Assembly: GCA_002718345.1 (NCBI GenBank)
Contig: PBDA01000017.1
Coordinates: 17,884-81,883, forward strand
DNA: 64,000 nucleotides
Origin: Rhodospirillaceae bacterium
GTDB taxonomy: Bacteria; Pseudomonadota; Gammaproteobacteria; Steroidobacterales; Rariloculaceae
Direction of reading: 5' to 3'
Shown: in pieces, positions 3,529 through 31,264 of the stretch
Layout: every line of letters begins with the position of its first letter
Position numbering within the stretch: the first letter of the stretch is position 1
Notes under the pieces: model-generated
Database searches by the model: none
The model's input: the letters and a program-made list of their open reading frames with translations, nothing else
Told to the model about the DNA's origin: nothing
Translations under genes and position numbers: made by a program

Positions 3529-3854
3529 AATTTTTTTCTGTGCGGCTAATTTCGTGGTGATACAAACAGGTTTTAAGTTAATAGATCTCTTTAATTATAA
3601 AAATCGATTCTTAAACTAATGAACTTACTCTACCAGATAAGACTTTGCACTTTCTTTTTTAAACAAAAGAAAGCCTAGACTAGGGCGCATTAAGAAATAA
3701 CGTATAGGACTAGGGTAGCACCACTATTTTTACAGAAATCTACTAATTGCGATTAAACATTGTTCAACTCTCTTGACACTTTCGTCTGCAAAAGCGACAG
3801 TAACGAGCTATTTCCATGATGTGTATGGAGAAAATAATAATCAAGGGGAGAAAA

Positions 3855-5133: not shown

Positions 5134-5601
5134 ATGATCCCAGTAACTCTAACCTTAAATGGTAAAGTAGTATCGGCTGATATAGAGCCACGGACACTCC
5201 TTGTTCAGCTAATCCGAGATCATTTTCATTTGACCGGAACACATGTGGGCTGTGATACCAGCCAATGTGGCGCATGTGTGGTTCACGTAGATGGTGTTTC
5301 GGTTAAAAGTTGTACGATGTTAGCAGTTCAGGTAGATGGAGCCAAAGTACAGACTATCGAGAGTCTTGCAGATAAAGAGAGACTTCATCCTATGCAGCAA
5401 GCGTTCAAGGATCATCATGGATTACAGTGTGGTTTTTGTACCCCCGGTATAATTATGAGCGCATTGAATTTGATTGCAAAAAACCCCAATCCGAGTGAAT
5501 CAGACATACGAGATTGGTTAGAAGGAAATTTATGTCGCTGTACTGGATACCACAACATTGTTAAAGCAATCAGTGCTGGCGCAGAAGCGATGAAAAGTTA
5601 A
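5134..5601 (+). CDS. (2Fe-2S)-binding small subunit of a molybdopterin hydroxylase (CoxS/XdhC-type)
   Basis: Shows the CDTSQCGAC and CGFCTPG...CRCTGY cysteine clusters typical of CoxS-like proteins, at about 155 aa. Confidence 0.85.
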
Positions 5602-5606
5602 CTATT

Positions 5607-6401
5607 ATGTATGACTTTTCCTACAAGCGACCAACTTCCCTATCTGATGCGGCTGAAATGTCTGAACAAGCAGAAGATGGGTCATTTTTGGCAGGTGGCA
5701 TGACATTGATTCCAGCATTAAAGCTACGTCTTGCAAGCCCTTCTATTTTGATAGACCTCGGAGGCGTGCAAGATTTAACTGGCATTAGCCAGGAAAATAA
5801 TACTTTAACAGTGCGAGCAATGACGAAACATGCTGACGTAGCTGTATCATCAGAGGTTAAAAATGCTATACCTGCTTTATCTGAGGTAGCTGAATCTATT
5901 GGAGACCCTCAAGTTAGAAACAGAGGAACCATCGGTGGGTCTATCTCAAATGCTGACCCTGCAGCAGATTATCCAGCAGCACTACTTGGACTTGGAGCAA
6001 CGGTTGAAACCAACAGCCGTACCATAGGTTCTGATGATTTTTTTACTGGATTATTCGGAACTGCTTTAAATGCTAATGAATTAGTAGTTGCGGTTCATTT
6101 TCCCATTCCTAAACGAGCTGTTTATATGAAATTTCCAAACCCTGCATCTCGCTATGCCATTGTTGGTGTTATGGTTGCAGAGTGTAGTGATGAAATTAGA
6201 GTGGCTGTTACTGGCGCAGGACCGAGTGTTTTTCGTGTTTTTGAAATGGAAGAAGCACTACAGAAAAACTTTTCCCCTAACTCCATTCAAGACATGATAG
6301 TTTCAGCTGATGGTTTAAATGAAGACATGCATGCTTCTGCAGATTATCGTGCTCATCTGATTACAGTAATGGCCAAACGTGCTGTAGCTAAACTTATCTA
6401 G
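5607..6401 (+). CDS. FAD-binding medium subunit of a molybdopterin hydroxylase (CoxM-like)
   Basis: Contains LAGGMTLIP, RNRGTIGGS and the C-terminal ASADYRAHL motifs. It begins 5 nt after the small-subunit gene. Confidence 0.8.
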   Translation: MYDFSYKRPTSLSDAAEMSEQAEDGSFLAGGMTLIPALKLRLASPSILIDLGGVQDLTGISQENNTLTVRAMTKHADVAVSSEVKNAIPALSEVAESIGDPQVRNRGTIGGSISNADPAADYPAALLGLGATVETNSRTIGSDDFFTGLFGTALNANELVVAVHFPIPKRAVYMKFPNPASRYAIVGVMVAECSDEIRVAVTGAGPSVFRVFEMEEALQKNFSPNSIQDMIVSADGLNEDMHASADYRAHLITVMAKRAVAKLI

Positions 6402-16200: not shown

Positions 16201-16881
16201 CTATGTATTTGCCCAAAATCGTAAAAGATTATGGTAGATACCGGCAAGTGTTACTAATGATGGATGTTCAGGGACATCAACTCCTAAATGTTGTATAGCT
16301 TTATCTAATTGAAACAATGTTTCACGTTGAGCGTTATCTCTTACCATGCTTTCAATCCAGAAAAATGCAGCCAAACGAACTCCACTTGTTACAGCTTTTA
16401 TCTGATGGATGCTTGTTCCAGGGTAAAGCACCATATCTCCAGCCGACAGCTTTATAGTTTGTTCCCCAAACGTATCGCGTACAATTAATTCACCGCCTTC
16501 ATAGGTATCAGGGTTACTGAGAAAAAGGGTTGCTGATAAATCAGTACGAATTCTATGCTGGCCTCCAGCCACTGGCCGAATTGCCCCATCTATATGGCCA
16601 CCGTACGATTCACCATCGGTATAGCGATTAAAAAGAGGCGGCAAAACTTTGAGTGGAAGAGCAGCTGCAGTAAAAATAGGATGATTTTGAAGAGCTTTTA
16701 GGATTGTTTCTCCAAGTTTTACAGCAATAGGATCATCATCGGGCAATTGCTGATTATTTTTGACTCCTTGGGATAGGTATCCAGCACTATGGCGCCCATC
16801 TGCCCAAGATGCATTGTTTAGCTTGAGCCGAGCTTCTTCAACTTCATTTGGTGTTAAAACACCTTCTATGCTTATCAGCAT
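16201..16881 (-). CDS. ybiX: Fe(II)/2-oxoglutarate-dependent PKHD-type hydroxylase (YbiX/PiuC family)
   Basis: 226 aa, with MLISIEGVLTP.., HxD-type segment GGHIDGA, DLSATLFL and YPGTSIHQI. It lies 4 nt downstream of the TonB-dependent receptor, as in E. coli fiu-ybiX and Pseudomonas piuA-piuC. Confidence 0.8.
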   Translation of the reverse strand: MLISIEGVLTPNEVEEARLKLNNASWADGRHSAGYLSQGVKNNQQLPDDDPIAVKLGETILKALQNHPIFTAAALPLKVLPPLFNRYTDGESYGGHIDGAIRPVAGGQHRIRTDLSATLFLSNPDTYEGGELIVRDTFGEQTIKLSAGDMVLYPGTSIHQIKAVTSGVRLAAFFWIESMVRDNAQRETLFQLDKAIQHLGVDVPEHPSLVTLAGIYHNLLRFWANT

Positions 16882-16885
16882 GACT

Positions 16886-19147
16886 TTAGAAGATTACATT
16901 GAGCGCTAAAGTTGCTGTGCGACCAGGTCCTGGAACAATGTGCCAAGGGTGTGACTGATCGAAATAATATTCATTAGTTAGGTTGGTGATGTTCATTTTT
17001 ATAGAAATAGTATCTGTCAAAATAAAACGTCCCATGGCATCTACAAGTTGATAGCTTGGCACTGATTTGCCGCTTCCTTTGTTTGTGGCTAATAGTTCTG
17101 AAATATGCCGTGCTCCAATTCCAAAGTCTAGGCGATCGTTGAATTGATAATTAAACCAAAGAGAAAGGGAGTGCTCAGGAGCATTTGCTAATTCTGCACC
17201 AGTAGCAGCTCCTGGAGCTGCTTTTACTACCTCTGTGTCTAAGTAGGTGTATCCTGCTGTCAGGTATAGTCCATTAGAAATCATGCCGTTCATGTCTAAT
17301 GAAAGACCTCTGACCTGATGTTCTCCACCCAGAGTGTTAAAACCAGGGTTATCTGGGTCTGGTACTCGTGCGTTCTTTTTTATGATTTCAAATATGGCAC
17401 CTGCAAAAGAAAGGGCACCTTCATTAAGATCAATTTTTACGCCAGCCTCAAGACTTTCATTTTTCTCTGGGTCCAGTAACTGATTCCCTAAAGCTAGTCC
17501 ACGGCCGCTGGTAAGCAAAGACAAGCTCTGAGCAGATGGATTGAACGATGTGCTGCCAGCTAAATAAACACTGGATTCTAATGTTGGCTTATATACTAAA
17601 GCTGCACGATAACTTCCTTCTTTGTCAGTCTGGTTAAATGTTTCTTTCCCTTCAGATTTTCCATCATTAAAAGGCGTTGCTGGTCCTTTGAATCTTGTTG
17701 CGTTGTAGTCTGTTTCAAACTTGTCCCAACGACCTCCGAGGGTTAATTGCCAATTATCATTTAGTTTGATCGTGTCCAAGACATAAAGAGCAAAGGTTTC
17801 GCCGGTTGTGTCTGATATTACTCTAGGGTCTGTGCTGCCTGTAAAAGGCATTTTAGAGTTTGGGTTTAAAAGATTAGTTCCTGATGCACCTATTCCAAAA
17901 GCAAAGGTTGGTTCTGAAGTTTCTTTAGTAAATTCTATGCCTCCAGCTATAACATGTTCCAAGTTACCGGTTTCAGTTTCCCACGTAACGTTAGCCTGTG
18001 TGGTAAAAAGAGTTTCTTCGCTGTTCCCTAAAAAAACATTTCTAAATATAGATACGTCGTTAAGTGATGCACCAGAAGCAATAGTTTCCGTAATTAGTGG
18101 TTCTGTGATGCGGCTATCACGCTCGTAGTGCGCATATCTGGCTATTGCGTCTAAATTAAGCGTACTACTAAATGTGTGCGCCATATGACCAGTAAAAATG
18201 TCTGCATCTGTTTCCAGAAAGTCACTATCAAAGCCATAAAAGTTTTGACGAGATACCGGAGCAGGTTTCCCGTTAAGCCAGGGTAAACCATAGTCTGGCC
18301 TATCATCTGCCGTCTGTTTCATATAGCTTAAGGTGAACTGTGTGTCTGATTCCAAACCAAACGTTACACTGGGCGCAAATCCGAATCGCTTGGCTTCAGC
18401 TCCATCTCTGTCTGCTATTTCCCCCTGATGTGCCAGAATATTGAATCGGAAAGCTGCTTCGCTTCCCAATAATGAAGCGGGACGTGATATGTCTGCTGTT
18501 GCCCGGACAGTTTCATCTGATCCTAGGTTAACGCTAAAATCGGTTATTGAATCAAGGGTTGGTCTTTTTGACACTTGATTGATGGCACCACCTGTAGAGC
18601 CTCTCCCAAATAAGATTGATGAAGGCCCAAGCATTACTTCGAGTGACTCTAAATTGAATGGATCGCGGGGATAACTTCCAAAGTCTCGCATGCCATCTAA
18701 GTACATATCGTCCCTAGCACTAAATCCTCTAATATTAGGAGCGTTACCTTGCCATGCAAATTCACCTGCCCCAAGGGTGATTCCTGGGATGGCGCGTAGG
18801 GCATCATTTAAGCTATTGAGCCCACGGTCTTCGAGTAGCTCGCGGGACATTGTTTTAACTGTTTGTGGGGTATCTAGAAGACCTTCTGTTAATTTAGATA
18901 GTGAACTTTGATCAGCGCGATATCTTTCTGACTGTCTTTCAACAACTCTAACTTCTTCCATATTCTGGTTTGTGTTTGAAGTTGTGTCCTCATTTTCTGA
19001 GGACTGGGCAATCGCTAAATTCGAAAATGTAAGACTAATTCCTGCGCCAACAAGAGCTTGAGTAACTGCTTGAGCAATGGGAGTCAGAGCCCCAAAATCA
19101 TGCCTAACAACTTCAGAATAATTAACCTTTCTGAGTGATTTTTTCAT
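16886..19147 (-). CDS. fiu: TonB-dependent receptor, catecholate-siderophore (Fiu/PiuA) type
   Basis: Plug motifs DTPQTVKTMSRELLEDRG, IRGFSARDDMYLDGMRD, LEVMLGPSSILFGRGSTGGAINQVSKRP, followed by a long barrel ending ...LALNVIF. Confidence 0.8.
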   Translation of the reverse strand: MKKSLRKVNYSEVVRHDFGALTPIAQAVTQALVGAGISLTFSNLAIAQSSENEDTTSNTNQNMEEVRVVERQSERYRADQSSLSKLTEGLLDTPQTVKTMSRELLEDRGLNSLNDALRAIPGITLGAGEFAWQGNAPNIRGFSARDDMYLDGMRDFGSYPRDPFNLESLEVMLGPSSILFGRGSTGGAINQVSKRPTLDSITDFSVNLGSDETVRATADISRPASLLGSEAAFRFNILAHQGEIADRDGAEAKRFGFAPSVTFGLESDTQFTLSYMKQTADDRPDYGLPWLNGKPAPVSRQNFYGFDSDFLETDADIFTGHMAHTFSSTLNLDAIARYAHYERDSRITEPLITETIASGASLNDVSIFRNVFLGNSEETLFTTQANVTWETETGNLEHVIAGGIEFTKETSEPTFAFGIGASGTNLLNPNSKMPFTGSTDPRVISDTTGETFALYVLDTIKLNDNWQLTLGGRWDKFETDYNATRFKGPATPFNDGKSEGKETFNQTDKEGSYRAALVYKPTLESSVYLAGSTSFNPSAQSLSLLTSGRGLALGNQLLDPEKNESLEAGVKIDLNEGALSFAGAIFEIIKKNARVPDPDNPGFNTLGGEHQVRGLSLDMNGMISNGLYLTAGYTYLDTEVVKAAPGAATGAELANAPEHSLSLWFNYQFNDRLDFGIGARHISELLATNKGSGKSVPSYQLVDAMGRFILTDTISIKMNITNLTNEYYFDQSHPWHIVPGPGRTATLALNVIF

Positions 19148-19269: not shown

Positions 19270-21522
19270 TCAGAAGCGAAAGGTGTAATTAAGTTTTATG
19301 GCAAGATCACTTAAAGTGGATTCAAACCGGTTGTTCAGGTCCATATCTTGAAGATTGTGGTTAAAAACAATAAAAAATTCTTTTCCCGCTTCAGGAATCC
19401 AATGAAGCCTAGAATTTAGTCCCGCTGTTTCGGTGACATTATCGTACTGTATTAACGTAAGCCAAGAGACTTTATTGGAAAAGATTATGTCGGTTCTAAA
19501 TCCAACAAGCCGAGTATTAAAAATGCCATTTGGAAGTTCTACATCATTAAAATCATAGTTAAGTCGAAATTGAAAATGATTGCTTGGACGCCAGCCAATG
19601 GATGTTCCAATTCTTGTGCGCGTTCCACCATAAAAATCCCCGGTTCGATAATTAGCACTTCCCCATATCCTTCTAAAATCACCAGTAGAGAATGATAATT
19701 CTGTTTCATTGAATGCATAGCTATCAGGTGGAACTATTATTTTTTCAGAACCTTTTTTCCAGATCACATAGGGTTCAGTGAGAACTTCTTTAGTAGAATG
19801 GAAACGAAGATGTCCTCTATCACGAAGATGAGACTCTAGTTCTAGCGCGCGAAGGGTAACTACCTGCGATTGTAAACCACCACTAATTAAATCCACTCGA
19901 TGCGCGTCAACAGCACTGTAGACTGTTCTTAAAAACTCTCCACCAACTCGTCGACTGTAGCCAAGCTCAAATGTTTGGTCACGAATACCAGCTCTATTGA
20001 CAAAACCTAGAGCTGGGAAAAAATTTTCTTCGATTTGTTTGACACCAATGCCACCACGCCATCCTAAAACATTTGTGGCACGGATTCGCATGCCATAGGC
20101 GCTTTGGTTTTCATTGATTCCATCGGTTCTTGATTCTTGGTACCAAGCCTCTCCTTGTATCGACTTTCCTCCGGGTAATCTGGTGTTGTTATATAGAAAA
20201 TCAAACCCACCAACACTATTTCCTACGTTGGACCTAGGATCGCCATCTGTGATTAGAATACCGGCAGAAGATTCCTCTAAAACATTTGCTGTTATCCGTC
20301 CGACAAAGATATCACTAGCATGAATGTTCTCATACTGGTCCTGTCTGATAGCAAGTGCTCCCACATTCCAGCGACCTACTCTGCCACTAAGTTTAGCTCC
20401 AGCATCTATATCTACTGGTTGGCCAGCCGAACCTAAACCAATTCTTCTTGAGAAGTATGGCCTACCATTTTCTAAGTCTGGTTGTGAAAAGGAACTAGTC
20501 CCAGTCAGACCGAATCCAAGTCTCCCACCAACTCTGGCATAACGAAAAATATCGGCATCTCTCAAAAAAAATGTACGTTTCTCAGGAAAAAAAAGACTAA
20601 ACCGGGTGAGTTCCAATTGACGGGTATCAACCTCAGTAGCGGAAAAGTCTGTATTCAGAGTGACTGCTCCGTTAAGGGATGGCGTGATCTTATAGAATAG
20701 ATCTAGTGAAGGCTCAGCATTAGTTTCATTTGAAGATATATCAAAGTCCTTTTTCTCCTTTAAGGTTACTGATGGAACAATGTCGATACCTTTGCCTAAT
20801 TGGAGTTGCTCGAAGCCAACGGCCTCACCTGCAATGCTTGGGTCTTGGCTTGAGTTTCTAGAAACCCACCCACTCATTTCACTTATGCGCCCGAGATCTC
20901 TGGTGAAATTAATGCCCCAAGTGTCATTTTGCGGATTGAATGAAAGTGTTTTGAAAGGAATTGATATTTCGGCTACCCATCCAGATTCATTTCTGCTTAC
21001 AGCCCCATACCAAATGCCATTCCAGTTCCAGTCTTGTCCACTAGTGTCATAGAACAGCATTTCCATCCTGACGCCATTAGGGTTAATTTGAAAACGATAG
21101 CCATTTCTTTTGTCATTAAATGGCGCAACAATAACCGACAGATAATCGTCACCCCAAAAATGAGCTCCCTGTCTCAGGGTATTAGCGTTCATAGTCTCTG
21201 GTTGTGAGTCAAAAAGTTTTGCTCCGATGTAAAGCGCATCATCATCGTAAAAAATACGGATCTCAGTATTTTCTGTTGGTGAGTCATACTCAATGGGCCT
21301 TATCTGATGAAGGTCATTAATCATTGCAGCCGATTCCCAAGCTTCTTCATCAAGCTGTCCATCAATCGTTGGAGTTTGGTCACGATTAATAGATACAGTT
21401 TTTGTTTCTTGTTCTGTAGACGGCGTAATCTGGGAGTATGCAAGCCCTGTATAAAGTATTGGCAATAGACTAATAGCGATCATACACAACATTTCAAATG
21501 CTCTTGTGGTGTATTTTTTCAT
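19270..21522 (-). CDS. Outer-membrane protein with CBM9-like/DOMON-like domain and beta-barrel (DUF5916-like), copy 2
   Basis: Collinear with 13890..16166 over the full length, roughly two-thirds identical by eye. Both share FSATEVD.RQ.ELTRFSLFFPEKRTFFLRD and end ...NYTFRF. Confidence 0.65.
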   Translation of the reverse strand: MKKYTTRAFEMLCMIAISLLPILYTGLAYSQITPSTEQETKTVSINRDQTPTIDGQLDEEAWESAAMINDLHQIRPIEYDSPTENTEIRIFYDDDALYIGAKLFDSQPETMNANTLRQGAHFWGDDYLSVIVAPFNDKRNGYRFQINPNGVRMEMLFYDTSGQDWNWNGIWYGAVSRNESGWVAEISIPFKTLSFNPQNDTWGINFTRDLGRISEMSGWVSRNSSQDPSIAGEAVGFEQLQLGKGIDIVPSVTLKEKKDFDISSNETNAEPSLDLFYKITPSLNGAVTLNTDFSATEVDTRQLELTRFSLFFPEKRTFFLRDADIFRYARVGGRLGFGLTGTSSFSQPDLENGRPYFSRRIGLGSAGQPVDIDAGAKLSGRVGRWNVGALAIRQDQYENIHASDIFVGRITANVLEESSAGILITDGDPRSNVGNSVGGFDFLYNNTRLPGGKSIQGEAWYQESRTDGINENQSAYGMRIRATNVLGWRGGIGVKQIEENFFPALGFVNRAGIRDQTFELGYSRRVGGEFLRTVYSAVDAHRVDLISGGLQSQVVTLRALELESHLRDRGHLRFHSTKEVLTEPYVIWKKGSEKIIVPPDSYAFNETELSFSTGDFRRIWGSANYRTGDFYGGTRTRIGTSIGWRPSNHFQFRLNYDFNDVELPNGIFNTRLVGFRTDIIFSNKVSWLTLIQYDNVTETAGLNSRLHWIPEAGKEFFIVFNHNLQDMDLNNRFESTLSDLAIKLNYTFRF

Positions 21523-21536
21523 AGCCTGTACTAATG

Positions 21537-22553
21537 TTACTGAAGCGTGAATTGACTCGCGTTATTTGGGTCACAATCAAATCCAAGCATTGGGAAATGC
21601 GGGGCATAATGCCAAATCACTGTACCTGTGAATGGTGTTTCCAAATATTCTGGGTCTTCGAGAACATAATCGATGTGTAGTTCGGTGCCATCTTCGTTCA
21701 AGGTGAACCGTTCAGTTACGTGTTTATTTATGCCAGAGGGCACGCCACTACCTATCACTGGAGATCGGTGAGGTTCAAATAGGGAAGTTTCTACCACTAA
21801 AGTTTCTCCTTCCCACCTTCCAATTGAGTAGCCTTGGTTACTGTAAGGCTCTTCTGCTGGTTGTTCTCTTCCATCAATATAGATAGCACGTTCAACATTG
21901 AAACGTTCATTACGAATAATCAATGAATTTTCAGTAATCTTAATCTCATTTAAATTGGGAGATATCAGGCTAGCCGGACTAGGAATCGCTATGCATTGTG
22001 CCTGAGGACTGTCAGATATAACGCTATAATCAGCGCGAGCAGCAATGCCCCTATCAGTAAGCATTGCTTCTCCCCAATTCTCATAGAACTGAATAAAGTC
22101 GGAATAGCCAAGTTCCCAAATCCCAGATATATCAGATGCGCTCGATCTTAAGTCCATGTCATCTGTCTTTCTGAGAAAATAAGAACGAGCTGAAAGAGTT
22201 TCGGTTTCCGTTGAGATTGATACTAAAAGAGCATGTTTGTGTTCTATTCGTTTGTCCGGATAAGCACGAACCAAAACTTGATCTCCGGGCATCAATGATG
22301 TTGATGTCCATCCACTTCTTGTCAAAATTGGCGTTGCGTCAGTCTCAACTTCCCACTCAACAAGCTCACCATTTTCCGTTTGCGTTTCCACATAGATATA
22401 TACGTGTGGATTAGTCCAGGTAAAGCGTGTGACCTTTCCTTGAAAGACAGTTACCGCAGTTCTATCAAAAATAGTTGCACTATGATGACTTAGGGCAGGC
22501 GATAAGCCTAAAAGTGCTGTTGTTGTGATAGAAATAATTAGAGGTTTTACCAC
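21537..22553 (-). CDS. Secreted fusion protein: HHS/NPH module (DUF6152-like) plus family X domain
   Basis: I prefer GTG at 22553 because it has an AGGAG Shine-Dalgarno; it gives MVKPLIISITTTALLGLSPALS then HHSATIFD...WTNPH...WEVETD. The C-terminal half has ISGIW, GRWEGETLVVETS, VTERFTL and LEDPEYLETPF. Confidence 0.65.
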   Translation of the reverse strand: MVKPLIISITTTALLGLSPALSHHSATIFDRTAVTVFQGKVTRFTWTNPHVYIYVETQTENGELVEWEVETDATPILTRSGWTSTSLMPGDQVLVRAYPDKRIEHKHALLVSISTETETLSARSYFLRKTDDMDLRSSASDISGIWELGYSDFIQFYENWGEAMLTDRGIAARADYSVISDSPQAQCIAIPSPASLISPNLNEIKITENSLIIRNERFNVERAIYIDGREQPAEEPYSNQGYSIGRWEGETLVVETSLFEPHRSPVIGSGVPSGINKHVTERFTLNEDGTELHIDYVLEDPEYLETPFTGTVIWHYAPHFPMLGFDCDPNNASQFTLQ

Positions 22554-22810
22554 GAAATGACTCCTAGAATTACTGTCCAAACTTATCAGGATATCAGTGC
22601 TTTAAAAGTAGATAAGATTATAGAGAATCATTTTATCTCAGCTATTCGATATCTAAAACTTTGGGTATCGGAATATCCTTGTTAAAAATAAGTTTGCATT
22701 ATTAGACTCTTTGTAAGAGTTTCTATAATAAGACAACACAAAATCAAAGGATATTTCGTAGCTTTTAAATAGAAAAATTGCAAATAAAGAGAAATATAAA
22801 CAGATTTTTT

Positions 22811-23293
22811 TTAAGGAAATCCAATTAGTCGACCACAGACTGAGATACAACCCCAAAGAGAGAGGGAAATTAAAGCAATTGTTTTTTTCTTGTTCTGTGA
22901 CGTGTTTGCATTAAGTAATGCTGCTTTCCTAATAGTAAAAGTAAATGTGATAGCTGAAATAAGAGCAATTAGTTTCACCCAAAAAGCACTCAGATAATAA
23001 TACTTTGTAGCAAAACACATAAAAAGCGGAAGCCCAGTCAACCCCATGATGAGAATTCCCGTAATTTGCAAACGTTCTATTTCACGCGCAATTTGATGAG
23101 TAGGTTGATTTGCTAGCCCATAGCCCATCAAGCTCAGATCTCCCAATAATACAGCACCACCTACTACGACAAGGCCGAACAAATGGACAGTTGCAATAGT
23201 TGGGAAAAGCCATAGCGAACTTCGCATTTCAACTAGTAAAGGCAAATGCTCAATCATATGGCATATTTCCAATAGAGACATTAGCCAAACCAA
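22811..23293 (-). CDS. 4-TM inner-membrane protein, tandem paralog 2
   Basis: Four hydrophobic segments. It shares TVH....VVGG....GDL.L.G and a C-terminal GRLIG with the upstream ORF. Start is ATG 23293 or ATG 23281 (TAATG junction). Confidence 0.55.
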   Translation of the reverse strand: MVWLMSLLEICHMIEHLPLLVEMRSSLWLFPTIATVHLFGLVVVGGAVLLGDLSLMGYGLANQPTHQIAREIERLQITGILIMGLTGLPLFMCFATKYYYLSAFWVKLIALISAITFTFTIRKAALLNANTSQNKKKTIALISLSLWGCISVCGRLIGFP

Positions 23294-23778
23294 TACTGCT
23301 GATAGGGAATAAATCGACCAGTAGTAATAATCCCCATCCAGAGCGCTAGTCCTAAACCACCAGTGAGTCTAGCGCTAACCGGCGGCATTGGAGCTTGATC
23401 CCATTCCGCAAGATTACGACAAACAAATTTTAGAAATAGGAAGACATTTATACCCGCTAATATCAACATGGCTATCTTTGCTCGAAAAAATATATTGTCG
23501 TATTTATCTACTGGTGATGCATAAAACATTAAAAACCCAGTAATTGTCATTATTGCGAAACCTAACATGTTCCATGAAATGAGACGTTTCATCACCACAG
23601 ATGTTGGTATATACCTCATCATTAAGCCCAAGAGTCTTAAGTCAATAATCAGCGCTGTTCCTCCAAACACAGTTAAAGTGAGCACATGAAGCGTAAGAAT
23701 AAAAAGATACACGTAATGAGATTCGTGAAGTGAAACACTCCACGAAGTCAATGCTAGCCATTCTAGGAAGCTAACCAA
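23281..23778 (-). CDS. 4-TM inner-membrane protein, tandem paralog 1
   Basis: Four hydrophobic segments, with motifs TLHVLTLTVFGGTALIIDLRLLG and TGRFIPY. I could not assign a family. Confidence 0.55.
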   Translation of the reverse strand: MVSFLEWLALTSWSVSLHESHYVYLFILTLHVLTLTVFGGTALIIDLRLLGLMMRYIPTSVVMKRLISWNMLGFAIMTITGFLMFYASPVDKYDNIFFRAKIAMLILAGINVFLFLKFVCRNLAEWDQAPMPPVSARLTGGLGLALWMGIITTGRFIPYQQYWFG

Positions 23779-23879: not shown

Positions 23880-24305
23880 TCAGCGGTTAGGCCGTGGGTT
23901 GCCGTCTGCACCTGGAGCAGATCCCCCCATGAATACCTTTCGTCCATCAAGATATTCAAAGAAAACTGCCACACCTTTGTTTTCACCGCTTTTTGCTTGA
24001 TAAGCAAAAACCCGTATTTCTGATCCCTCGGGCAGAGTGTCTTTGCTAACTCCATTGCGAAATAAGTTAACAGGAGGTCCTCCTTCAAAGCCCCAATTCG
24101 TAACTGTTCCATCTTCGCTAGTAACATCTACCCAGAGCCAGGAATGGGGGTTTGTAAGTTCAACCCTTGTTACTACCCCCTCCATATTGAGAGGTTTGTT
24201 TTCATCATAAGCTGCCGCAAAGGAATGGTGAGCTTGTGTTGGTAAAACCAATAGAAACGACACAGCGCAAATTATCTTCAGGAGTAATGCAATTGTTATT
24301 CTCAT
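23880..24305 (-). CDS. Small secreted HHS/NPH protein (DUF6152-like), stand-alone copy 1
   Basis: MRITIALLLKIICAVSFLLVLPTQA then HHSFAAAYDENKP..VELTNPHSWLWVDV..WGFEGGPPVNL. Size (141 aa) and motifs match my recollection of DUF6152. Confidence 0.7.
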   Translation of the reverse strand: MRITIALLLKIICAVSFLLVLPTQAHHSFAAAYDENKPLNMEGVVTRVELTNPHSWLWVDVTSEDGTVTNWGFEGGPPVNLFRNGVSKDTLPEGSEIRVFAYQAKSGENKGVAVFFEYLDGRKVFMGGSAPGADGNPRPNR

Positions 24306-24319
24306 GGCGTCAATTCCCC

Positions 24320-25468
24320 CTACCTTGATTCAATTTTTTGGGCAGCTTGGTACTCTGCTGCACGGGTTCTAGCCCCTCTAAGTACATTAATAATGCCATA
24401 GTTTTGTTCATGGCAGGCGAATTCAAATAGCCAACCAGGAGAATCCATCATTGGCCAAGGGACTTCTATACTCCATGGAGTTTCCCAAGTGCTGGGATCC
24501 GTTAATGTAGCTTCATAGAGTAGAGTTTGATCATCAATTCTTGTAAAGCGTTCTTCTAGCTGTAGTCCTTCGCTAGAGCCATTCCACTTTCGGTTTTTAT
24601 GAAAATTTGTAGTTTCAACAACTAAGGTATTGTTTTCCCAATGACCTCTAGAATCCCCTAAGTAACTTCGAACAGTTTCTGGAGCATGATTGGAACCGTT
24701 TAAATGAAAGATGCGGACATCACTATTGGCTTGCGTAATTAATATCACGTGATTAGGGGTTTGAATGATTTGGGATTGACCTATATTTTGCACAAATGGA
24801 ATCCCCGGCGGGCCTTGATTTCCTTGTATGCAACGTTCATAGAGTCCTCTGGATTCAAGTGTGTGTCGACGAGCTTGGGCTTCATGTCTTGTTTGCCCTT
24901 CAGGCGTAAGTTTTGGCACACGCCCATTCAAAGGATTTGTTATAAGCGAAGTGCGGCGATTGGGCCGTATTGGGCTTTGCCAATTATCCATTCCAAACTC
25001 AGTCCAGTCGTAGTGAACGGTGGCTGGATCTACTGAAGCATCCTGTGTTGCTCGATGCACAAAAGCGGATATTGCTTCTTCCCTAGTATAAAAAGGTTTG
25101 TTTATGTTTTCTTCTGAGCGCTCAAGGGGCGTGTAGGCTACATTTAACCAATAACCGGCGATATCAGGGTCTCCCCAAGAAGTTTTCGAAGTAGGTGAGC
25201 GGGGGGTTGAGGGATCCCAAATTATTTCAGTTGCACTTTCAAGAAAGGCCTCAGCTTCTTCCTGAAAGTAGGCATAGGTTGAGTCAGATGTGTGTGGGGA
25301 AGCTGCTCGCGCTGCCTCAAGGGTTTCTTGTGAACGCTGGTTGATAAGTGCCGAGGGAGGTGGCGTAGTTTGGCTCTCTGCAAGAGTAGTAACAGCTAAA
25401 ACGATTGCTGAGGACACTATTACACGTATTTTTAAGGTTTTTCCTGACAGTAAAATTATTTGCGACAT
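24320..25468 (-). CDS. Secreted family X protein (382 aa)
   Basis: Signal peptide, PDIAGYW, ERCIQGNQGPPGIP, GHWENNTLVVETT, LEERFT..LLYEATLTDPSTWETPW and FEFAC. Confidence 0.6.
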   Translation of the reverse strand: MSQIILLSGKTLKIRVIVSSAIVLAVTTLAESQTTPPPSALINQRSQETLEAARAASPHTSDSTYAYFQEEAEAFLESATEIIWDPSTPRSPTSKTSWGDPDIAGYWLNVAYTPLERSEENINKPFYTREEAISAFVHRATQDASVDPATVHYDWTEFGMDNWQSPIRPNRRTSLITNPLNGRVPKLTPEGQTRHEAQARRHTLESRGLYERCIQGNQGPPGIPFVQNIGQSQIIQTPNHVILITQANSDVRIFHLNGSNHAPETVRSYLGDSRGHWENNTLVVETTNFHKNRKWNGSSEGLQLEERFTRIDDQTLLYEATLTDPSTWETPWSIEVPWPMMDSPGWLFEFACHEQNYGIINVLRGARTRAAEYQAAQKIESR

Positions 25469-25482
25469 TTAGAAACCTTAGT

Positions 25483-26367
25483 TTAGGGATCGTTCGATAC
25501 ATCTTCCTCATAAAAACCAAGTGGCTTGTAAAACATGGGTTCTACTATTGGAACGCAATTAAATTCTTTTAGTTCAGCATTCTCCTCTATGTGTTTATAT
25601 AGAATAAAACTCATTTTCCAGGGGCGGGTAAACACATTTGGATCTTCTATAGTTGCTTCATACTTCATGTGGTAAGGGCTGAGAGGCGTCCATCTTTCTG
25701 TAACATGAAGGTCATCGCTGGCAAAATTACCCTCTCGATCTAACCATGTATGCTCATTGAATCCTTTCACATCCACAACTAGGGTATTTCCTTCCCAGTG
25801 TCCGTTAGATGTACCCATCCAAGATGCGTCAAGTGCTGGTCTTTCTTCGTCCATATAAATTGTTCTATAGGCGCCTTTGTACTCATAGACAATAAGTATT
25901 TGATCAGCAGTCTGAAATATCTGAAATGGGTATGGCATATAGTTCGCACGTGGAACACCCGCACGGAAACACAATAGCTCAGGATCACCTGTATCAAATC
26001 TGGTTGGGTCATTTGCAGCAGTTACTACAGCGCGTGTTTCATAATTTCTCTGTTGTTCTGCAACTGCCCATTCTTGGTATGGCAATTCATTTCCTTCAAC
26101 AATTCCATAGCCTGCGCGTCCCGCTCCCCAAGCACCTGACTGCTCAGCGAAGGGGCCAGCCTGAACAGGGTGAGACAAGATATTCCAATTCGCTGTAGTG
26201 AATGATTGCCAGATACCAGATATATCTGGTGTCCCATGTGGGGTACGGGGTGGTGTATATTCCGGAAACAGATCTTGATCGGGTAGCTCTTGCGCTAACC
26301 CTAAAACGCTATAAAACGAAAAAATTACTAGAAAAATAAATCGCTTGTTTAGTCGCAGGTCTTTCAA
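25483..26367 (-). CDS. Secreted family X protein (294 aa)
   Basis: Signal peptide, PDISGIWQ, LLCFRAGVPRANYMPYPFQI, GHWEGNTLVVDV, VTERWT..YEATIEDPNVFTRPW and EFNC. TTG start. Confidence 0.6.
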   Translation of the reverse strand: MKDLRLNKRFIFLVIFSFYSVLGLAQELPDQDLFPEYTPPRTPHGTPDISGIWQSFTTANWNILSHPVQAGPFAEQSGAWGAGRAGYGIVEGNELPYQEWAVAEQQRNYETRAVVTAANDPTRFDTGDPELLCFRAGVPRANYMPYPFQIFQTADQILIVYEYKGAYRTIYMDEERPALDASWMGTSNGHWEGNTLVVDVKGFNEHTWLDREGNFASDDLHVTERWTPLSPYHMKYEATIEDPNVFTRPWKMSFILYKHIEENAELKEFNCVPIVEPMFYKPLGFYEEDVSNDP

Positions 26368-26487
26368 AATTTTCGCCCCCCAGTTTACTAGCTACTATTC
26401 TTTTTTGTATTAGTCTGAGCCTACCACTGTCCGCCTTATTAGAGCATATTATTGTAGAGATAGTTATTTGTTCGGGTTATTAAAGCA

Positions 26488-27219
26488 CTATTCATTTGTT
26501 TGCGTCATTTCCATGTAAGCATAGCATTCATATTCCAGAATTTGCGCATGGTCTTCTTTTCGTCGATATAACGGCATACGAACTGTCCAGGGTTCCGAAT
26601 AGATTTTTGGGTCCTCAATAGTTGCCGCATAAAGTATGTGGTCCGGTCCGGAAAGGGTATAGCGTTCAGTCACATGGAGGTCTTCACTATGGTAATTTCC
26701 CGAGCGGTCGAACCAAGTTTGATCTGTGAAGTGGATAACATCGACTACCAAAGTATCACCTTCCCAGTGTGCTCGCGAATCTCCCATCCACCATTGAATA
26801 GGGCCTGGCGGATGATCACTGTCTAAATAAATATTGCGAAAAGTATGTATATATTCATACAAGATCGTAACTTGGTTGTTCGTCTGCATTATCTGAAATG
26901 GGTAAGGCATGTAGGTGATCCGCGGGACACCAACCATAAAACACTTTGCTTCAGGGTCCTCAGTTAATCTATTACTAAAATTCTCTTTGCGTTTTTGTAT
27001 TGCATCCTCTCTATAGGGCAGTTTGCCAGTGTCTATATTCCCATGTCCTGCTGGAATGCCCAGTTCAGCAGGATGATCTTCTATGTTCCAAACGGCGCTA
27101 CTAATCGTTTGCCATATACCTCTAAGATCAGGTCGTCCATCTTTCATACGTGGAATCTCGTGGGCCCAGCCCACTACTGAGACTGTAAGAGTCATTACAC
27201 AAAGCACGATTCTGAACAT
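26488..27219 (-). CDS. Secreted family X protein (243 aa, minimal form)
   Basis: Signal peptide, PDLRGIWQ, KCFMVGVPRITYMPYPFQI, AHWEGDTLVVDV, VTERYT..YAATIEDPKIYSEPW and EYEC. An AGGAGA Shine-Dalgarno lies inside the upstream gene. Confidence 0.65.
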   Translation of the reverse strand: MFRIVLCVMTLTVSVVGWAHEIPRMKDGRPDLRGIWQTISSAVWNIEDHPAELGIPAGHGNIDTGKLPYREDAIQKRKENFSNRLTEDPEAKCFMVGVPRITYMPYPFQIMQTNNQVTILYEYIHTFRNIYLDSDHPPGPIQWWMGDSRAHWEGDTLVVDVIHFTDQTWFDRSGNYHSEDLHVTERYTLSGPDHILYAATIEDPKIYSEPWTVRMPLYRRKEDHAQILEYECYAYMEMTQTNE

Positions 27220-27221
27220 CC

Positions 27222-27626
27222 CTATCTTTCTCCTGGACGATTCCCACCAAATAAAGTTCGTCCATCCGGTAACTTTGTCTCACCCCCATACAATTCCTTG
27301 GAGCCATCCCTTGCAGGAAAACCACTAACAGTAATCATAGCTCCTATAGGCAAATCGTCAGCACGCCAACCTCTCCTGAATAGGTTGTTGGCACTACTGA
27401 ACCAGATAGTCCAAATTTCAGTGTTATTTTCATTAAGTCTCTCGACAAACATGCGAGCATGTGGATTTATAAAATCCATTTCTTTTATAGTGGCAGTCAG
27501 CAGGGTCTCAGAATCCATATCAAACCCTGCTGCAATAGAATGGTGGCAGTAAGCATCATTTAAAAACAGCAGATAAAGTCCCGATAGTGCGATTAACCAG
27601 ACTATCGTATGCTTGGTTCTTATCAT
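27222..27626 (-). CDS. Small secreted HHS/NPH protein (DUF6152-like), stand-alone copy 2
   Basis: MIRTKHTIVWLIALSGLYLLFLNDAYC then HHSIAAGFD...FINPHARMFV...WTIWF. ATG at 27626 forms an ATGA overlap with the stop of the upstream gene. Confidence 0.65.
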   Translation of the reverse strand: MIRTKHTIVWLIALSGLYLLFLNDAYCHHSIAAGFDMDSETLLTATIKEMDFINPHARMFVERLNENNTEIWTIWFSSANNLFRRGWRADDLPIGAMITVSGFPARDGSKELYGGETKLPDGRTLFGGNRPGER

Positions 27627-28567
27627 TGCCTTTGCTCCCAAGCTATTTTTAGCTGTCTTGCTTCTGCGCCCGTAATACCCGGGTAAAGCATGTAGCCATT
27701 ATTTAGAAATAGTCTCATTTGTTCCTTATTGTTTTCATAGCATGCTTCCTCCCAGATCTCTGGGTTTTCATCAGCATCTCTCCTGAAAGCAAAAGCAACG
27801 GTAAAAGGCCGTTTATAAACATTTGGATCCTCAAATGTTGCTGAGTAGTGAATTGTATTGTGATCTACCAGAGTCATTCGTTCAGTAATTGTTGCTTCCT
27901 CAGTTATAAAATGCCCTCTTTGGTCTAGTAGGTATTTAGCATTATGGTTTGGGGAATTGATGATTAATGTGTTCCCATCCCAATGACCTCTAGGATCACC
28001 ATTCCACATTAATATTTCAGCAGCATGAGGTCGTCCATCTAGAGGGATAATTCGGTATGGATGGGCAGTCAGTTGTTCTCCTACCATAATTAGGTATTGG
28101 TCATCTTGCTGGAACTGAAACCGACTAGTCATATACATTGTCCCTGCTGGTCCAGACAAAAAGCATGCAGCATTGTGGTGCAAGTAACGCTCTGCATTTT
28201 CTATACTTTTTTCTTTTGCCCAAGGTTGTATGGGGATTTTTCCATCTGGAGGATCTACTATTCCGCTAGTCCCGCCGAAATCATCTGCAGTCACTGGATG
28301 GGCTTCAAAATCTTCAAAAATCCATGCTCGACGTCGCCAATAGCCGCTGAAGTCAGGCCGATTATCTGCAGTTGTGAGCTGGGGCCTCAAGGCGGCTGCT
28401 TTGATTGCGCATGCATGGAAAATTGCATGTTCATTGCTTTGACAAATAGAGTTTTCAAAGCTTCCAAGAGAATTAATTTGACTAGAGACAGGCTGTAAAG
28501 ACAGCAGCAATATAGTAATAACTTGAGAAATTAATGGTATTGAAATTTTTAATTTAAATCGGTCCAT
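27623..28567 (-). CDS. Secreted family X protein (314 aa)
   Basis: Signal peptide, PDFSGYW, AACFLSGPAG, GHWDGNTLIINS, ITERMT..YSATFEDPNVYKRPF and EEAC. Confidence 0.6.
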   Translation of the reverse strand: MDRFKLKISIPLISQVITILLLSLQPVSSQINSLGSFENSICQSNEHAIFHACAIKAAALRPQLTTADNRPDFSGYWRRRAWIFEDFEAHPVTADDFGGTSGIVDPPDGKIPIQPWAKEKSIENAERYLHHNAACFLSGPAGTMYMTSRFQFQQDDQYLIMVGEQLTAHPYRIIPLDGRPHAAEILMWNGDPRGHWDGNTLIINSPNHNAKYLLDQRGHFITEEATITERMTLVDHNTIHYSATFEDPNVYKRPFTVAFAFRRDADENPEIWEEACYENNKEQMRLFLNNGYMLYPGITGAEARQLKIAWEQRQ

Positions 28568-28640: not shown

Positions 28641-29849
28641 TTATTGGCGGTCCTGAATTAATTTAACTTGTTCATTAAAATTATCAGCTACTTCTTCCAT
28701 TGCTTCTATTCGTCTATTGTAATAGGAAGTTAGAAGTGCTGTTTCCTCTTTTCTTAATTCTCCCTCATCGATAAGTTCTGATAGACATTCAAGTTGTATA
28801 TTGGTACTTGCTACAAAATTACGAATCTCGGTCTGACCAATTATCATTTCTTCAATTGATGCTGATCTTCCGTCAGGCATAACTGGTATTGCTTCAGGAG
28901 TGCAGTGACCAGCAATCTCTTGAAGGCTAGGCATCATTGCTTGTGTGGCTTGGTTTTCCTCAGGATCTGGCACTATCGACAAGTATATTTTAAGAGCACT
29001 TGCATACCTAGGGTGAACATCTTTAGCTACACGCAAGTATTCCTCAAGAGAAGCTAGTGCCCTAGTTTCGTTTAAATTAGTTACCGCTGCTTCAGCTTCA
29101 ATAACTAATAGATCTGGGTTCATTGCACCACAGACATTTCTCATTTGCTGCGCCCAGAATAAAACAGCGGTTGAATCACCAGAGTCCAGTGCCGTTTGAA
29201 TTTCTGACCTAATTAAATCGGACCGTTCTGGAGGAGAAATATCACCATAGCGTTCCTCTTCGAGCCGAGTAACAGAATTTATTGAAATAAGCGGGTCAGG
29301 CACATCTGCAGGGAATACTCCACTAGGCCCAGTAGGAAGTTCTGCAATAGCATCAATAACTGAAATGCCTTCAATTACTTGTCCAAAGACAGTGTAACCA
29401 AGTTCTCGTCGAGTGGCATTGAGATCTTCGTTGTCACTTAGATTAATGAAGAATTGTGAAGACGCAGAATCAGGATCACTTGTTCTAGCTGCTGCTATAG
29501 TGCCACGCTCATTCTTGCGCTGATTCCGAGACTCATTTACAACAGGTGTTCTCGGTCTTTTTCCTCTCAAGTCTTTGTCAAAACCACCGCCTTGGACAAC
29601 AAACCCAGCTATAACTCGATGGAAAACTGTTCCGCCGTAAAATCCACGGTCTGTGTAATTAAGAAAATTTGCAACGTGTTGTGGTGCGTCATCATCAAAG
29701 AGTTCAATAACTACTCTTCCTAGGTCTGTACACATTGTTATATTTGTTGCGTTTGCAAAGGAGGCCCCAAAAAACGTCACAAGTGCACACATGTAATGCT
29801 GTCTTAATCTATAAAAAGGCTTTGTCATGTAAGACCTATGTACTGTCAT
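28641..29849 (-). CDS. Secreted cyclophilin-type peptidyl-prolyl isomerase with about 200-aa C-terminal helical extension
   Basis: The PPIase core reads VVIELFDDDAPQHVANFLNY..GFYGGTVFHRVIAGFVVQGGGF..SQFFINL..YTVFGQV. About 200 further residues have no motif I recognise. The true start may be an internal ATG. Confidence 0.75.
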   Translation of the reverse strand: MTVHRSYMTKPFYRLRQHYMCALVTFFGASFANATNITMCTDLGRVVIELFDDDAPQHVANFLNYTDRGFYGGTVFHRVIAGFVVQGGGFDKDLRGKRPRTPVVNESRNQRKNERGTIAAARTSDPDSASSQFFINLSDNEDLNATRRELGYTVFGQVIEGISVIDAIAELPTGPSGVFPADVPDPLISINSVTRLEEERYGDISPPERSDLIRSEIQTALDSGDSTAVLFWAQQMRNVCGAMNPDLLVIEAEAAVTNLNETRALASLEEYLRVAKDVHPRYASALKIYLSIVPDPEENQATQAMMPSLQEIAGHCTPEAIPVMPDGRSASIEEMIIGQTEIRNFVASTNIQLECLSELIDEGELRKEETALLTSYYNRRIEAMEEVADNFNEQVKLIQDRQ

Positions 29850-29869: not shown

Positions 29870-31264
29870 TTAACTACCAGCTAAGCTATTTTTAAGGGCA
29901 ATTTTTTCTCTTTCTTCAATTAATCCGCGCATCTTTCTTTGATACTCGCGGCTAATAGGGTAACGCCACATTAAGCCAATGACTATTAGGTAAGCTATAA
30001 CCGGCATGCCAACGATTAGGTAACGCAAACGCTGTAGCGCAGTACTAGTATTTTCGGCTCCCATTTCAGGCATAAAATCAAGTATTCCAAGCACTGACAT
30101 GACAATAAAAATTGCTATCCCTGATGCCATTTTGCTAGATGTTTGAAGTAGCGAATAGTAAAGTCCCATTCTTTCTGAGCCACTTTGAATGTGATCATGG
30201 TCACACACGTCTGCCATCATTGCTCTAGGCAAAAATTCATTAGCTGATGAATTAAGCCCTACTAACAAAAAAATGATTGTAGTTAAGAGTATGGCATTTG
30301 GAGGTAGTACTAGAAGTAATAATGAAGTTATAGCTCCAGTAGTCACAGCCATTTGCATTGTATTGTGCTTGTTCCAACGTTCAGACAGCCAAATCCAAAA
30401 AGGGAGCCCTAGAAGACCACCAACCAAAAGAAAAATAAGAATAAATCCTTCACTATCTTCTAGGTTCAAAGTAAAGGCCACAAAGAAAACAAACAGCGCC
30501 TGAACAAAGTAGGTTGAGAATGAAATCATAAAATTTGCTAGTAGCAAGCGTAATAACGGCATATTTTTAAAAACTACACTAGCGCCTTTCTTAAAGCCGA
30601 TATGAGACCGGTTTGCTGTCTTTCTCTCGGGGACGCTTATCAGGCAAAAAATAACAGTTACAGGTAATACGACAAACATAAACCAGCTGATAACTGAGGC
30701 GGCTTCTTCAAGGGAGGGTACATTTTCTTGCAGTTGCATTATGGCCCAGCCACCTCCAATTAGAATGCCACCAATCATTGTCATTGCTTGGAGTAAGCCG
30801 GTTATGCGTGACCTACGATCATAATCACGCGACAATTCAAGAGCCCAAGATGTATGACTAATAGTCCAAGCACTCCACCCTACATACAAAGTGGCAAGCC
30901 ACATAAATAAATAAAGTCCCCCCGCATCTTCTGGCGGGTTGTATACCATGAAAATGGCTAGCATTAGTATTGGAGCTGATAGAGCAAGCCATGGTCTGCG
31001 TCTGCCCCAGCGAGTGCTGTAGCTGTCCATAAATAGCCCCCAAAGCGGTGCGGCAGTCATGTCAACAACTTTTGCAGCAAAAAAAATAGCCCCAACAGCG
31101 GCCCCTACACCTACATGATTAGCATAAAGCGGAGGTAAAAAAACAAAAACGGCGGTTACGAGCATATTTAAACCCAAAGAAGGCAGGGAAAATCCTGTCA
31201 TTCTCAAATTAGTAGCTCGTATTTCGCTCATACCTAAGCATAGTGTGTGTTGGCTGAGAAGCAA
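29870..31264 (-). CDS. MFS transporter of the glycoside-pentoside-hexuronide (GPH) symporter type
   Basis: About 12 hydrophobic segments and a DSYSTRWGRRRPW loop typical of MelB/GPH-type carriers. The start is uncertain (ATG 31264 or 31231). Confidence 0.65.
   Translation of the reverse strand: MLLSQHTLCLGMSEIRATNLRMTGFSLPSLGLNMLVTAVFVFLPPLYANHVGVGAAVGAIFFAAKVVDMTAAPLWGLFMDSYSTRWGRRRPWLALSAPILMLAIFMVYNPPEDAGGLYLFMWLATLYVGWSAWTISHTSWALELSRDYDRRSRITGLLQAMTMIGGILIGGGWAIMQLQENVPSLEEAASVISWFMFVVLPVTVIFCLISVPERKTANRSHIGFKKGASVVFKNMPLLRLLLANFMISFSTYFVQALFVFFVAFTLNLEDSEGFILIFLLVGGLLGLPFWIWLSERWNKHNTMQMAVTTGAITSLLLLVLPPNAILLTTIIFLLVGLNSSANEFLPRAMMADVCDHDHIQSGSERMGLYYSLLQTSSKMASGIAIFIVMSVLGILDFMPEMGAENTSTALQRLRYLIVGMPVIAYLIVIGLMWRYPISREYQRKMRGLIEEREKIALKNSLAGS

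Follow-up and report, generated by a model that had tools for sequence, protein, structure and literature searches.

An unnamed family of exported, predicted calycin-type barrel proteins encoded with DUF6152 in a gammaproteobacterial contig and in genomes of several phyla

What do six related, exported proteins, encoded within one stretch of a bacterial genome, do in the cell envelope when none of them bears a recognised family name? The stretch, called the window below, is 64,000 nucleotides (nt) of contig PBDA01000017.1 (positions 17,884 to 81,883 of the forward strand; assembly GCA_002718345.1), from a genome deposited as Rhodospirillaceae bacterium and placed by GTDB in the gammaproteobacterial Rariloculaceae. 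A preliminary description, made from the sequence alone, had picked out six minus-strand open reading frames (ORFs), here called family X, and had guessed at a secreted, ligand-binding barrel. All six are found where it had placed them. What went unnoticed is that family X has company: a second protein, DUF6152, makes up the N-terminal halves of two of the six, which are fusions, and also two small ORFs interleaved among the others. I argue here that family X is very probably a periplasmic barrel that works with DUF6152, and I consider what the two might do together.

The family consists in the window of X314 (27623-28567), X243 (26488-27219, the shortest member), X294 (25483-26367) and X382 (24320-25468), numbered by length in amino acids (aa), and of the fusions F347 (21537-22580) and F374 (2404-3528). 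The first fusion had been given as 21537-22553; the longest ORF reaches a TTG at 22580 and encodes 347 aa, and public gene calls keep the 338-aa start. All 15 pairwise BLASTP comparisons among the six are significant (E from 1e-4 to 9e-72 for a database size of 20,000 residues), so their similarity is homology, not chance; the lowest E, 9e-72, belongs to X294 and X243, which are 41% identical. That the six are paralogues of one family is confirmed as well by a MAFFT alignment, which reproduces the five ordered blocks of conserved residues first seen by eye. Its invariant columns (n=6, numbering of X382) are W107, C213, R252, G271, W277, T281, L282, E306, R307, T309, D324, P325, P331 and C352. 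A few details of the blocks do need correction. The first, P-D-x-x-G-x-W, had been put just after the signal peptide in five of the six; it is present in four (F347 has S-D-I-S-G-I-W, F374 only D-M-G-L-F-R-V-W), and in X314 and X382 it lies about 70-100 residues from the start. The G that opens block 3 is A in X243. The C-terminal Cys, said to be within about 25 residues of the end, is 10-38 residues from it. Each of the six begins with a hydrophobic leader, judged by eye, in keeping with secretion. A scan of all window ORFs with the family's hidden Markov model finds these six members and no seventh.

The want of a name has proved real. Scans of the six ORFs against Pfam and NCBIfam at E<=1 gave no match for the X domain, and searches of PDB sequences with 6- and 70-member profiles gave chance matches only (JAK1 at E 0.03 and a leader-peptide match). 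The NCBI pipeline PGAP calls the homologues on sphingomonad plasmids 'hypothetical protein' and names their neighbours DUF6152 and DUF6644. The profile search that had been suggested as a check returned a large family and no characterised one: a profile of the six ORFs matched 18,771 representatives of 50%-identity clusters, 11,121 of them with E<=1e-10, and X243 has more than 8000 relatives in a 90%-clustered database, none with a Pfam domain. Species-representative genomes carry family X in the Acidobacteriota (Vicinamibacterales, Bryobacterales), the Gammaproteobacteria (Methylomonas methanica, Pseudohongiella, Porticoccaceae, Steroidobacteraceae), the Burkholderiales (Derxia lacustris) and the Gemmatimonadota, and a search of plasmids found it also in Novosphingobium, Sphingobium and Croceibacterium. 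There are often several copies per genome. X382 itself, with the cluster around it in the same gene order, is found identically in 17 public marine contigs, one Tara Oceans assembly included; the window itself is marine.

Some members of the family are built with additional parts. Instances come from P0162, P0168, L023, L049 and L064, the P and L numbers denoting proteins and loci from other genomes. Some have an extra N-terminal, beta-rich domain of about 150 residues, which in P0162 opens with a PDFSGTW-like motif of its own; others are tandem X-X fusions of about 520-545 aa. The SnoaL/NTF2-like C-terminal extensions and methyltransferase extensions suggested for rare members score too weakly to be used. 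Among 70 diverse members, seven match the intradiol Dioxygenase_C domain (PF00775) below threshold (best E 0.0055); no invariant His/Tyr set of iron ligands is conserved, and the matches are therefore taken as local hairpin similarity.

What kind of protein is this? An AlphaFold2 model of X243, made with an alignment of 41 sequences, has a mean predicted local distance difference test (pLDDT) of 88, a predicted template-modelling score of 0.83 and nine strands by DSSP. Strand A (residues 34-37) contains the G-x-W of block 1. Behind it come helices within 71-103 and eight strands between 108 and 219, with a further helix at the C-terminus. Two of the helices, 71-82 and 84-87, stand between strand 34-37 and strand 108-112 and form a helix-turn-helix lid of the type seen between strands A and B in FABPs and other intracellular lipid-binding proteins (iLBPs), though the lid region is much longer here than in FABPs. 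It is here, between blocks 1 and 2, that the paralogues had been said to differ mainly in size, and so they do; X382, for example, carries a large insertion at this point. When the model is compared by Foldseek with the PDB, 49 of the 50 matches listed, the best included, are iLBPs (CRABP2, CRBP1, FABP3-7, myelin P2, intestinal FABP). The scores are weak: the best E is about 2e-3, and the template-modelling (TM) score on the target is mostly 0.5-0.62 (best matches 0.55-0.62) at 10% identity. As in calycins, a G-x-W lies in the first strand, and 90% or more of the 70 diverse members keep its G34 and W36. A profile comparison by hhalign with human FABP4 gives a probability of only 4%, so that no kinship with FABPs exists at the level of sequence; likewise, no Pfam match to lipocalins or FABPs appears at E<=1 for the window proteins or among the weak matches of the 70 members. 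The safe statement is that family X is predicted to be a calycin-type barrel with an FABP-like order of strand, lid and barrel. To that extent model and Foldseek, which point to a lipocalin/FABP-type barrel and not to a hydrolase fold, agree with the earlier guess of a barrel rather than a hydrolase.

The guess had gone further, to a binding protein rather than an enzyme, for want of a conserved set of catalytic-type residues. Family X does hold an invariant set: R128, E185 and R186 (numbering of X243) are the same in all 70 diverse members, and in the model they lie on strands 4 and 7. The family consensus also has an Arg closing the last strand (PWTxxxPxxR), a candidate for the basic residue that in calycins packs on the Trp of the first strand. 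In the same sample, conservation reaches 90% or more for both Cys, for the G-x-W of block 1, and for G.W.G.TLV and DP. Since the two Cys are so well conserved in exported proteins, a disulfide between them is plausible, as had been suggested; the model has a pLDDT of about 59 around the C-terminal one.

A clue to function comes from the company that family X keeps. All four copies of DUF6152 in the window score above the gathering cut-off of PF19649 (27 bits). They are D139 (27222-27641, minus strand; E 1.6e-21, 76.6 bits), D141 (23880-24305, minus strand; E 2.6e-29, 101.6 bits), residues 27-111 of F347 (E 5.5e-25, 87.7 bits) and residues 49-132 of F374 (E 1.3e-12, 48.1 bits). Three forms of a unit are encountered. 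In the first, X-D-X (27623-26488), the gene for D139 overlaps the end of X314 by 19 nt and that for X243 starts 2 nt after it. In the second (26367-22811), X294 and X382, a short and a long X, are followed by D141 and by two membrane proteins, M165 (23281-23778) and M160 (22811-23293), both on the minus strand, both above the Pfam cut-off for DUF6644 (PF20349) and overlapping one another by 13 nt. The third is the single-chain fusion of DUF6152 to X, as in F347, which follows M160, and in F374, which stands 18 kb away from the main cluster. Read along the minus strand the order is X314-D139-X243-X294-X382-D141-M165-M160-F347, and many junctions measure just -19 to +14 nt.

It might be that this arrangement is peculiar to one genome. 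It is not. Of 80 family X loci from other genomes of several phyla, 63 have DUF6152 within 3 kb, 70 have a second X no more than 1.5 kb away, and 15 have DUF6644 at a distance of up to 4 kb. The X-D-X unit recurs in unrelated housekeeping surroundings with its proportions kept, the first X of about 310-340 aa and the last of about 245-250 aa; at the same position in L081 and L082, genes of 311 and 339 aa are 63% and 56% identical to X314. The unit of short X, long X, DUF6152 and two DUF6644 recurs around orthologues of D141 in three further genomes, in one of which (L100/L101) cytochrome and other genes are interleaved among those for DUF6644. Beyond the two fusions of DUF6152 to X in the window, L003, L034 and L061 have seven more, and a DUF6152 domain is present in five of the 70 diverse members of family X. 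DUF6152 comes first in every one of the nine, an order that fits a need for a free N-terminal His (see below). The two domains are not versions of one another: hhalign of their profiles gives a probability of 1.8%, from which I take them to be mutually unrelated.

DUF6152 itself has a striking N-terminus. In an alignment of 38 sequences, every one has HH directly after an AxA-type leader, the cleavage site being judged by eye, so the mature protein should begin H-H-S; for D141 the predicted mature start is HHSFAAAYDE. Also invariant in all 38 are D34, N52-P53-H54 and W71 (numbering of D141, where the two His are H26 and H27), and all four window copies retain HH and NPH. The D141 model is a small barrel (pLDDT 83.5, about 55 in the N-terminal segment). 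Foldseek likens it to proteins of the oligonucleotide/oligosaccharide-binding (OB) fold, namely SSB, PriB and the anticodon-binding domain of LysRS (E about 3e-3, TM on target at most 0.67), and no sequence relative was found in the PDB.

A His that comes first in a mature protein calls to mind the histidine brace, in which a metal is held by the amino group and a side-chain nitrogen of the N-terminal His plus a second His (PMC10952591). Lytic polysaccharide monooxygenases (LPMOs), CopC and YcnI hold metal in this way (PMC10952591, PMC8424229). By its sequence DUF6152 would present His first, and the invariant His54 of NPH is a candidate second ligand; the N-terminal segment is modelled at a pLDDT of about 55. 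Its predicted OB fold is not the immunoglobulin- or cupredoxin-like beta-sandwich of the known brace proteins, and DUF6152 is therefore not counted a member of that group; the analogy is one of mechanism only. By that analogy I infer that DUF6152 bears a metal at its His-His/NPH site, with copper as a first guess.

Two further sets of proteins may connect the unit to electron transfer. The first is DUF6644. When 18 of these proteins are aligned, a single His is the same in all, within the first predicted transmembrane segment, and so are G, K, W and GR. Scanned individually, and judged by best E-values rather than by bit scores against curated cut-offs, five of the 18 match DUF2214 (best 3.2e-5), three CopD (best 3.6e-4) and two UPF0093/HemJ (best 0.03). 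DUF6644 may be a remote branch of the CopD-like membrane superfamily. HemJ is a haem-binding member of that group. CopD domains have been implicated in copper import next to CopC or YcnI (PMC8424229, PMC12362106). Either role, copper import or haem, would fit DUF6644.

The second set is the c-type cytochromes. Protein P0131 has an N-terminal cytochrome c domain (CQACH) ahead of a complete X domain. This is no isolated case: of the 120 best 90%-identity clusters found with P0131, which extend down to 59% identity, 119 have the fusion too (PF13442). In all four contexts of such fusions that were examined there is a second X and a DUF6152. Three of the four also have a gene of the pyrroloquinoline quinone (PQQ) dehydrogenase family, either as a direct neighbour or one gene removed; in the fourth such a gene lies at 5.6 kb. 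The PQQ proteins of these loci (L085, L086, L087, L089) fall below the cut-offs of the models for methanol/ethanol and for glucose/quinate dehydrogenases; they have a sub-threshold match to 'acido-empty-quinoprotein' as well. In L100/L101 the genes interleaved with those for DUF6644 include one for a tetrahaem CytoC_RC protein and another for a cytochrome c. Taken together, the partnership with DUF6152 and the cytochrome c fusions suggest that family X does more than bind passively.

I propose that family X proteins are Sec-exported barrels of calycin type, in which the probable disulfide would fasten the C-terminal tail to the stretch ahead of strand B, and that they serve as partner subunits of the exported, OB-fold DUF6152, with which they would form a physical complex. 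The barrel would hold a small anionic or hydrophobic ligand against Arg128 and Glu185-Arg186. DUF6152 would contribute a metal, perhaps copper, bound through its free N-terminal His much as in a histidine brace. Electrons would enter or leave, in the window, through the two CopD/HemJ-like DUF6644 proteins and, in other lineages, through the cytochrome c domain fused to X or through multihaem cytochromes. Metal, ligand and catalysis are putative throughout, as is the direction in which electrons would move. I hold only tentatively that the unit is a periplasmic, metal-dependent module linked to electron transfer. More doubtful is the fuller version, in which two X and a DUF6152, with or without a DUF6644 pair or cytochrome c, make up a metalloenzyme or metal relay of the periplasm, very widespread and so far undescribed, whose brace-like centre at the tip of an OB fold is docked onto calycin barrels and wired to the respiratory chain by a new CopD/HemJ branch.

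Several observations weigh against this proposal. No invariant His or Met was found in family X, nor any cofactor-binding motif. With DUF6644 in only 15 of the 80 loci and cytochrome c in only a subfamily, most units have no obvious route for electrons. The similarity of DUF6644 to CopD and HemJ is below curated thresholds. Classical copper genes (CopA, CueO, PCuAC, Sco) were not seen in the neighbourhoods examined that carry Pfam or product annotation, and contexts beyond the core unit vary, from a siderophore receptor to beta-oxidation and electron-transfer flavoprotein genes, sulfonate genes and PQQ dehydrogenases. The fold evidence consists of predicted models and weak Foldseek scores, and for DUF6152 it points to OB, not to the sandwich of known brace proteins, with low confidence at the N-terminus.

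An alternative view is that nothing is catalysed and the module acquires metal. A metallophore would enter through a TonB-dependent receptor and be bound by X, on the model of siderocalin, whose basic residues bind siderophores; from there the metal would pass to the His of DUF6152 and then inward through DUF6644, and cytochrome c would merely reduce it for release. To judge this, the main rival, one must look downstream of F347. There, 14 nt on, begins O750 (19270-21522, minus strand), a protein with CBM9-like and DUF5916 domains by Pfam; it is possibly an outer-membrane partner of the cluster, an association that is itself tentative. Next on the same strand (16201-19147) is a Fiu-like catecholate siderophore receptor (Fiu E 4e-116, TIGR01783 above cut-off), with a YbiX/PiuC-type Fe(II)-dependent dioxygenase (E 7e-102) 4 nt after it, and then a second CBM9/DUF5916 gene. 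The receptor and YbiX thus share the array with family X, and TonB-dependent receptors adjoin family X also in Croceibacterium, Novosphingobium humi, Novosphingobium sp. PP1Y and Sphingobium. The HH of DUF6152 and the weak CopD and DUF2214 matches of DUF6644 suit such a relay, and there is a precedent in the exchange of Cu(II) between N-terminal-His proteins beside a CopD importer (PMC8424229, PMC12362106). The receptor and YbiX, however, form the classical fiu-ybiX pair, parted from O750 by a terminator-like hairpin (19205-19186), and their place in the array may mean no more than proximity. A search of the window for Fur-box-like sites, allowing up to three mismatches or using a hexamer-repeat pattern, found none, and both receptor and DUF6644 are missing from most loci. 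Neighbours such as PQQ dehydrogenases and multihaem cytochromes are not what one expects of a simple import relay. On balance I consider the acquisition relay unlikely.

The next view is that family X is an enzyme without a cofactor, an isomerase, hydratase or cyclase for instance, or a barrel that channels substrate in some catabolic route, with DUF6152 as an accessory. The invariant Arg and Glu on the barrel strands would be put to use on a hydrophobic or carboxylated substrate. Several calycins are, after all, enzymes. The genes around the modules lend this some colour. F374 is followed by an exported NHL-repeat propeller (1303-2376) and faces a hydrolase of the FAH family (3816-4997) that, unusually for its kind, bears a signal peptide; an orthologue, likewise exported, stands beside the module in L098 (11625-12674), its mature N-terminus resembling that of the window protein, and there is an FAH-family gene at the edge of L100/L101 and an NHL lipoprotein beside the module in L100 (752-2047). 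To these may be added the recurrent PQQ dehydrogenases and the rare, weakly scoring SnoaL/NTF2-like extensions. But the associations come from a handful of loci, no likeness to a known enzyme family has emerged (Dioxygenase_C, as noted, being sub-threshold), and the His-His of DUF6152 and the large cytochrome c-fused subfamily are left unexplained. I regard this view as improbable. Least probable of all is a passive carrier or buffer of lipid-like ligands in the manner of YceI or Blc, merely co-regulated with DUF6152 and present in six copies to suit diverse ligands: the fold, the variable lid in which the paralogues chiefly differ, and an AsmA-family gene and other envelope genes elsewhere in the window would agree with it, but against it stand the frequent covalent fusions to DUF6152 and to cytochrome c, which speak for a functional complex with redox input, and the order X-X-D kept across phyla.

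Transcription helps little in choosing among these views. Promoter-like sites in the window are fewer than in shuffled sequence, and the scan yields a single terminator-like hairpin, the one before the receptor gene. Four marine metatranscriptomes gave one short contig on X314 (28107-28275) and one on the receptor; transcript is present, and operon structure is not addressed by these contigs.

Some other features near the modules deserve record. On either side of the receptor pair lie the two CBM9/DUF5916 proteins, paralogues of about 750 aa (13890-16166 and 19270-21522, minus strand). Proteins of this architecture adjoin family X genes in L004 and L077 and occur within about 4 kb in L017 (Acidobacteriota); a redox role for the CBM9-like domain is speculation. 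Upstream of X314, an exported cyclophilin-type prolyl isomerase with a C-terminal extension of about 200 residues (28641-29849, minus strand) ends at a distance of 73 nt and is preceded by a GPH-family symporter gene (29870-31264). A 133-aa frame antisense within X314 (28097-28498, plus strand) is open and probably spurious. At 5134-6401 on the plus strand are the [2Fe-2S] and FAD-binding subunits of a molybdopterin dehydrogenase of the CO/xanthine type, flanked by the FAH-family hydrolase and an MgsA-type AAA ATPase, with no large molybdopterin subunit adjoining. In L097, a plasmid of Sphingobium sp. TomTYG65 (record 299627-303218), an X-D-X-D array and a divergent DUF6644 pair lie between TonB-dependent receptors, embedded in genes for a monooxygenase, TauD, SsuD-type and sulfonate-binding proteins, a sulfur-scavenging context unlike that of other loci. 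Peroxiredoxin and CMD-like genes directly upstream of modules in two loci raised the idea of a link to peroxide, which was given up: the former has no leader and the latter no clear CxxC.

How new is the proposed metal-dependent, electron-transfer-linked module? The calycin fold class is familiar. With iLBPs (FABP, CRABP, CRBP) and calycins at large (lipocalins, Blc, YceI) family X shares the predicted strand A with its G-x-W, the lid and the antiparallel meander barrel; with the carboxylate-binding FABPs it shares basic residues in the barrel strands. In many lipocalins a C-terminal Cys ties down the tail, and that of family X could do the same. Family X differs in being some 100-250 residues longer and exported, in its large variable lid, and in being encoded as two paralogues with DUF6152, sometimes fused to it or to cytochrome c. 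In E. coli, YceI is likewise a periplasmic lipocalin-like barrel, beside YceJ, a small His-containing four-helix protein of the respiratory membrane (cytochrome b561-type). That system has no OB-fold partner, no sequence similarity to the family X module was detected, and the superfamily to which DUF6644 may belong (CopD/HemJ-like) differs from that of YceJ. A likeness in logic, should the proposal be true, is offered by LPMOs and the cytochrome domain of cellobiose dehydrogenase, where an N-terminal-His metal site is fed by a dedicated cytochrome domain. The family X module is of another fold, with putative activity and outside any polysaccharide context, and its cytochrome is c-type, fused to the barrel subunit rather than to the one that bears the His.

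The nearest partial precedent is that of CopC or YcnI with CopD (Pseudomonas CopCD; Bacillus subtilis YcnI and YcnJ), in which a small exported His-first protein is encoded beside CopD membrane proteins, much as DUF6152, by prediction His-first, is beside the possibly CopD-like DUF6644. N-terminal (mono)histidine braces hold Cu(II) in YcnI and in the CopC domain of YcnJ, and the two exchange it (PMC8424229, PMC12362106). DUF6152 has a predicted OB fold as against the cupredoxin fold of YcnI (PMC8424229); DUF6644 is a pair of proteins of about 160 residues, each with four transmembrane helices by eye, as against one large CopD, a family that DUF6644 matches below threshold only; metal binding is putative; and two calycin barrels, the commonest partners, have been added. 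A full-text literature search found no mention of DUF6152, DUF6644 or 'empty-quinoprotein', and as far as was searched there is no earlier description of two calycin barrels joined with an HH-tipped OB-fold protein, a CopD-like pair and cytochrome c.

With about 11,000 50%-identity clusters at E<=1e-10, family X is among the larger protein families without a name, and it is at home in soil Acidobacteriota, in marine and soil Proteobacteria and in Gemmatimonadota. Linking it with DUF6152, DUF6644 and c-type cytochromes makes a single testable system of what had been four sets of 'hypothetical proteins', and its hosts include the cultured and tractable Methylomonas methanica, Derxia lacustris, Pseudohongiella, Novosphingobium and Sphingobium. 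If DUF6152 does carry a metal on its N-terminal His, an OB fold would extend the short list of scaffolds for the histidine brace, and these genes could then represent a common periplasmic step in redox or metal handling in abundant environmental bacteria.

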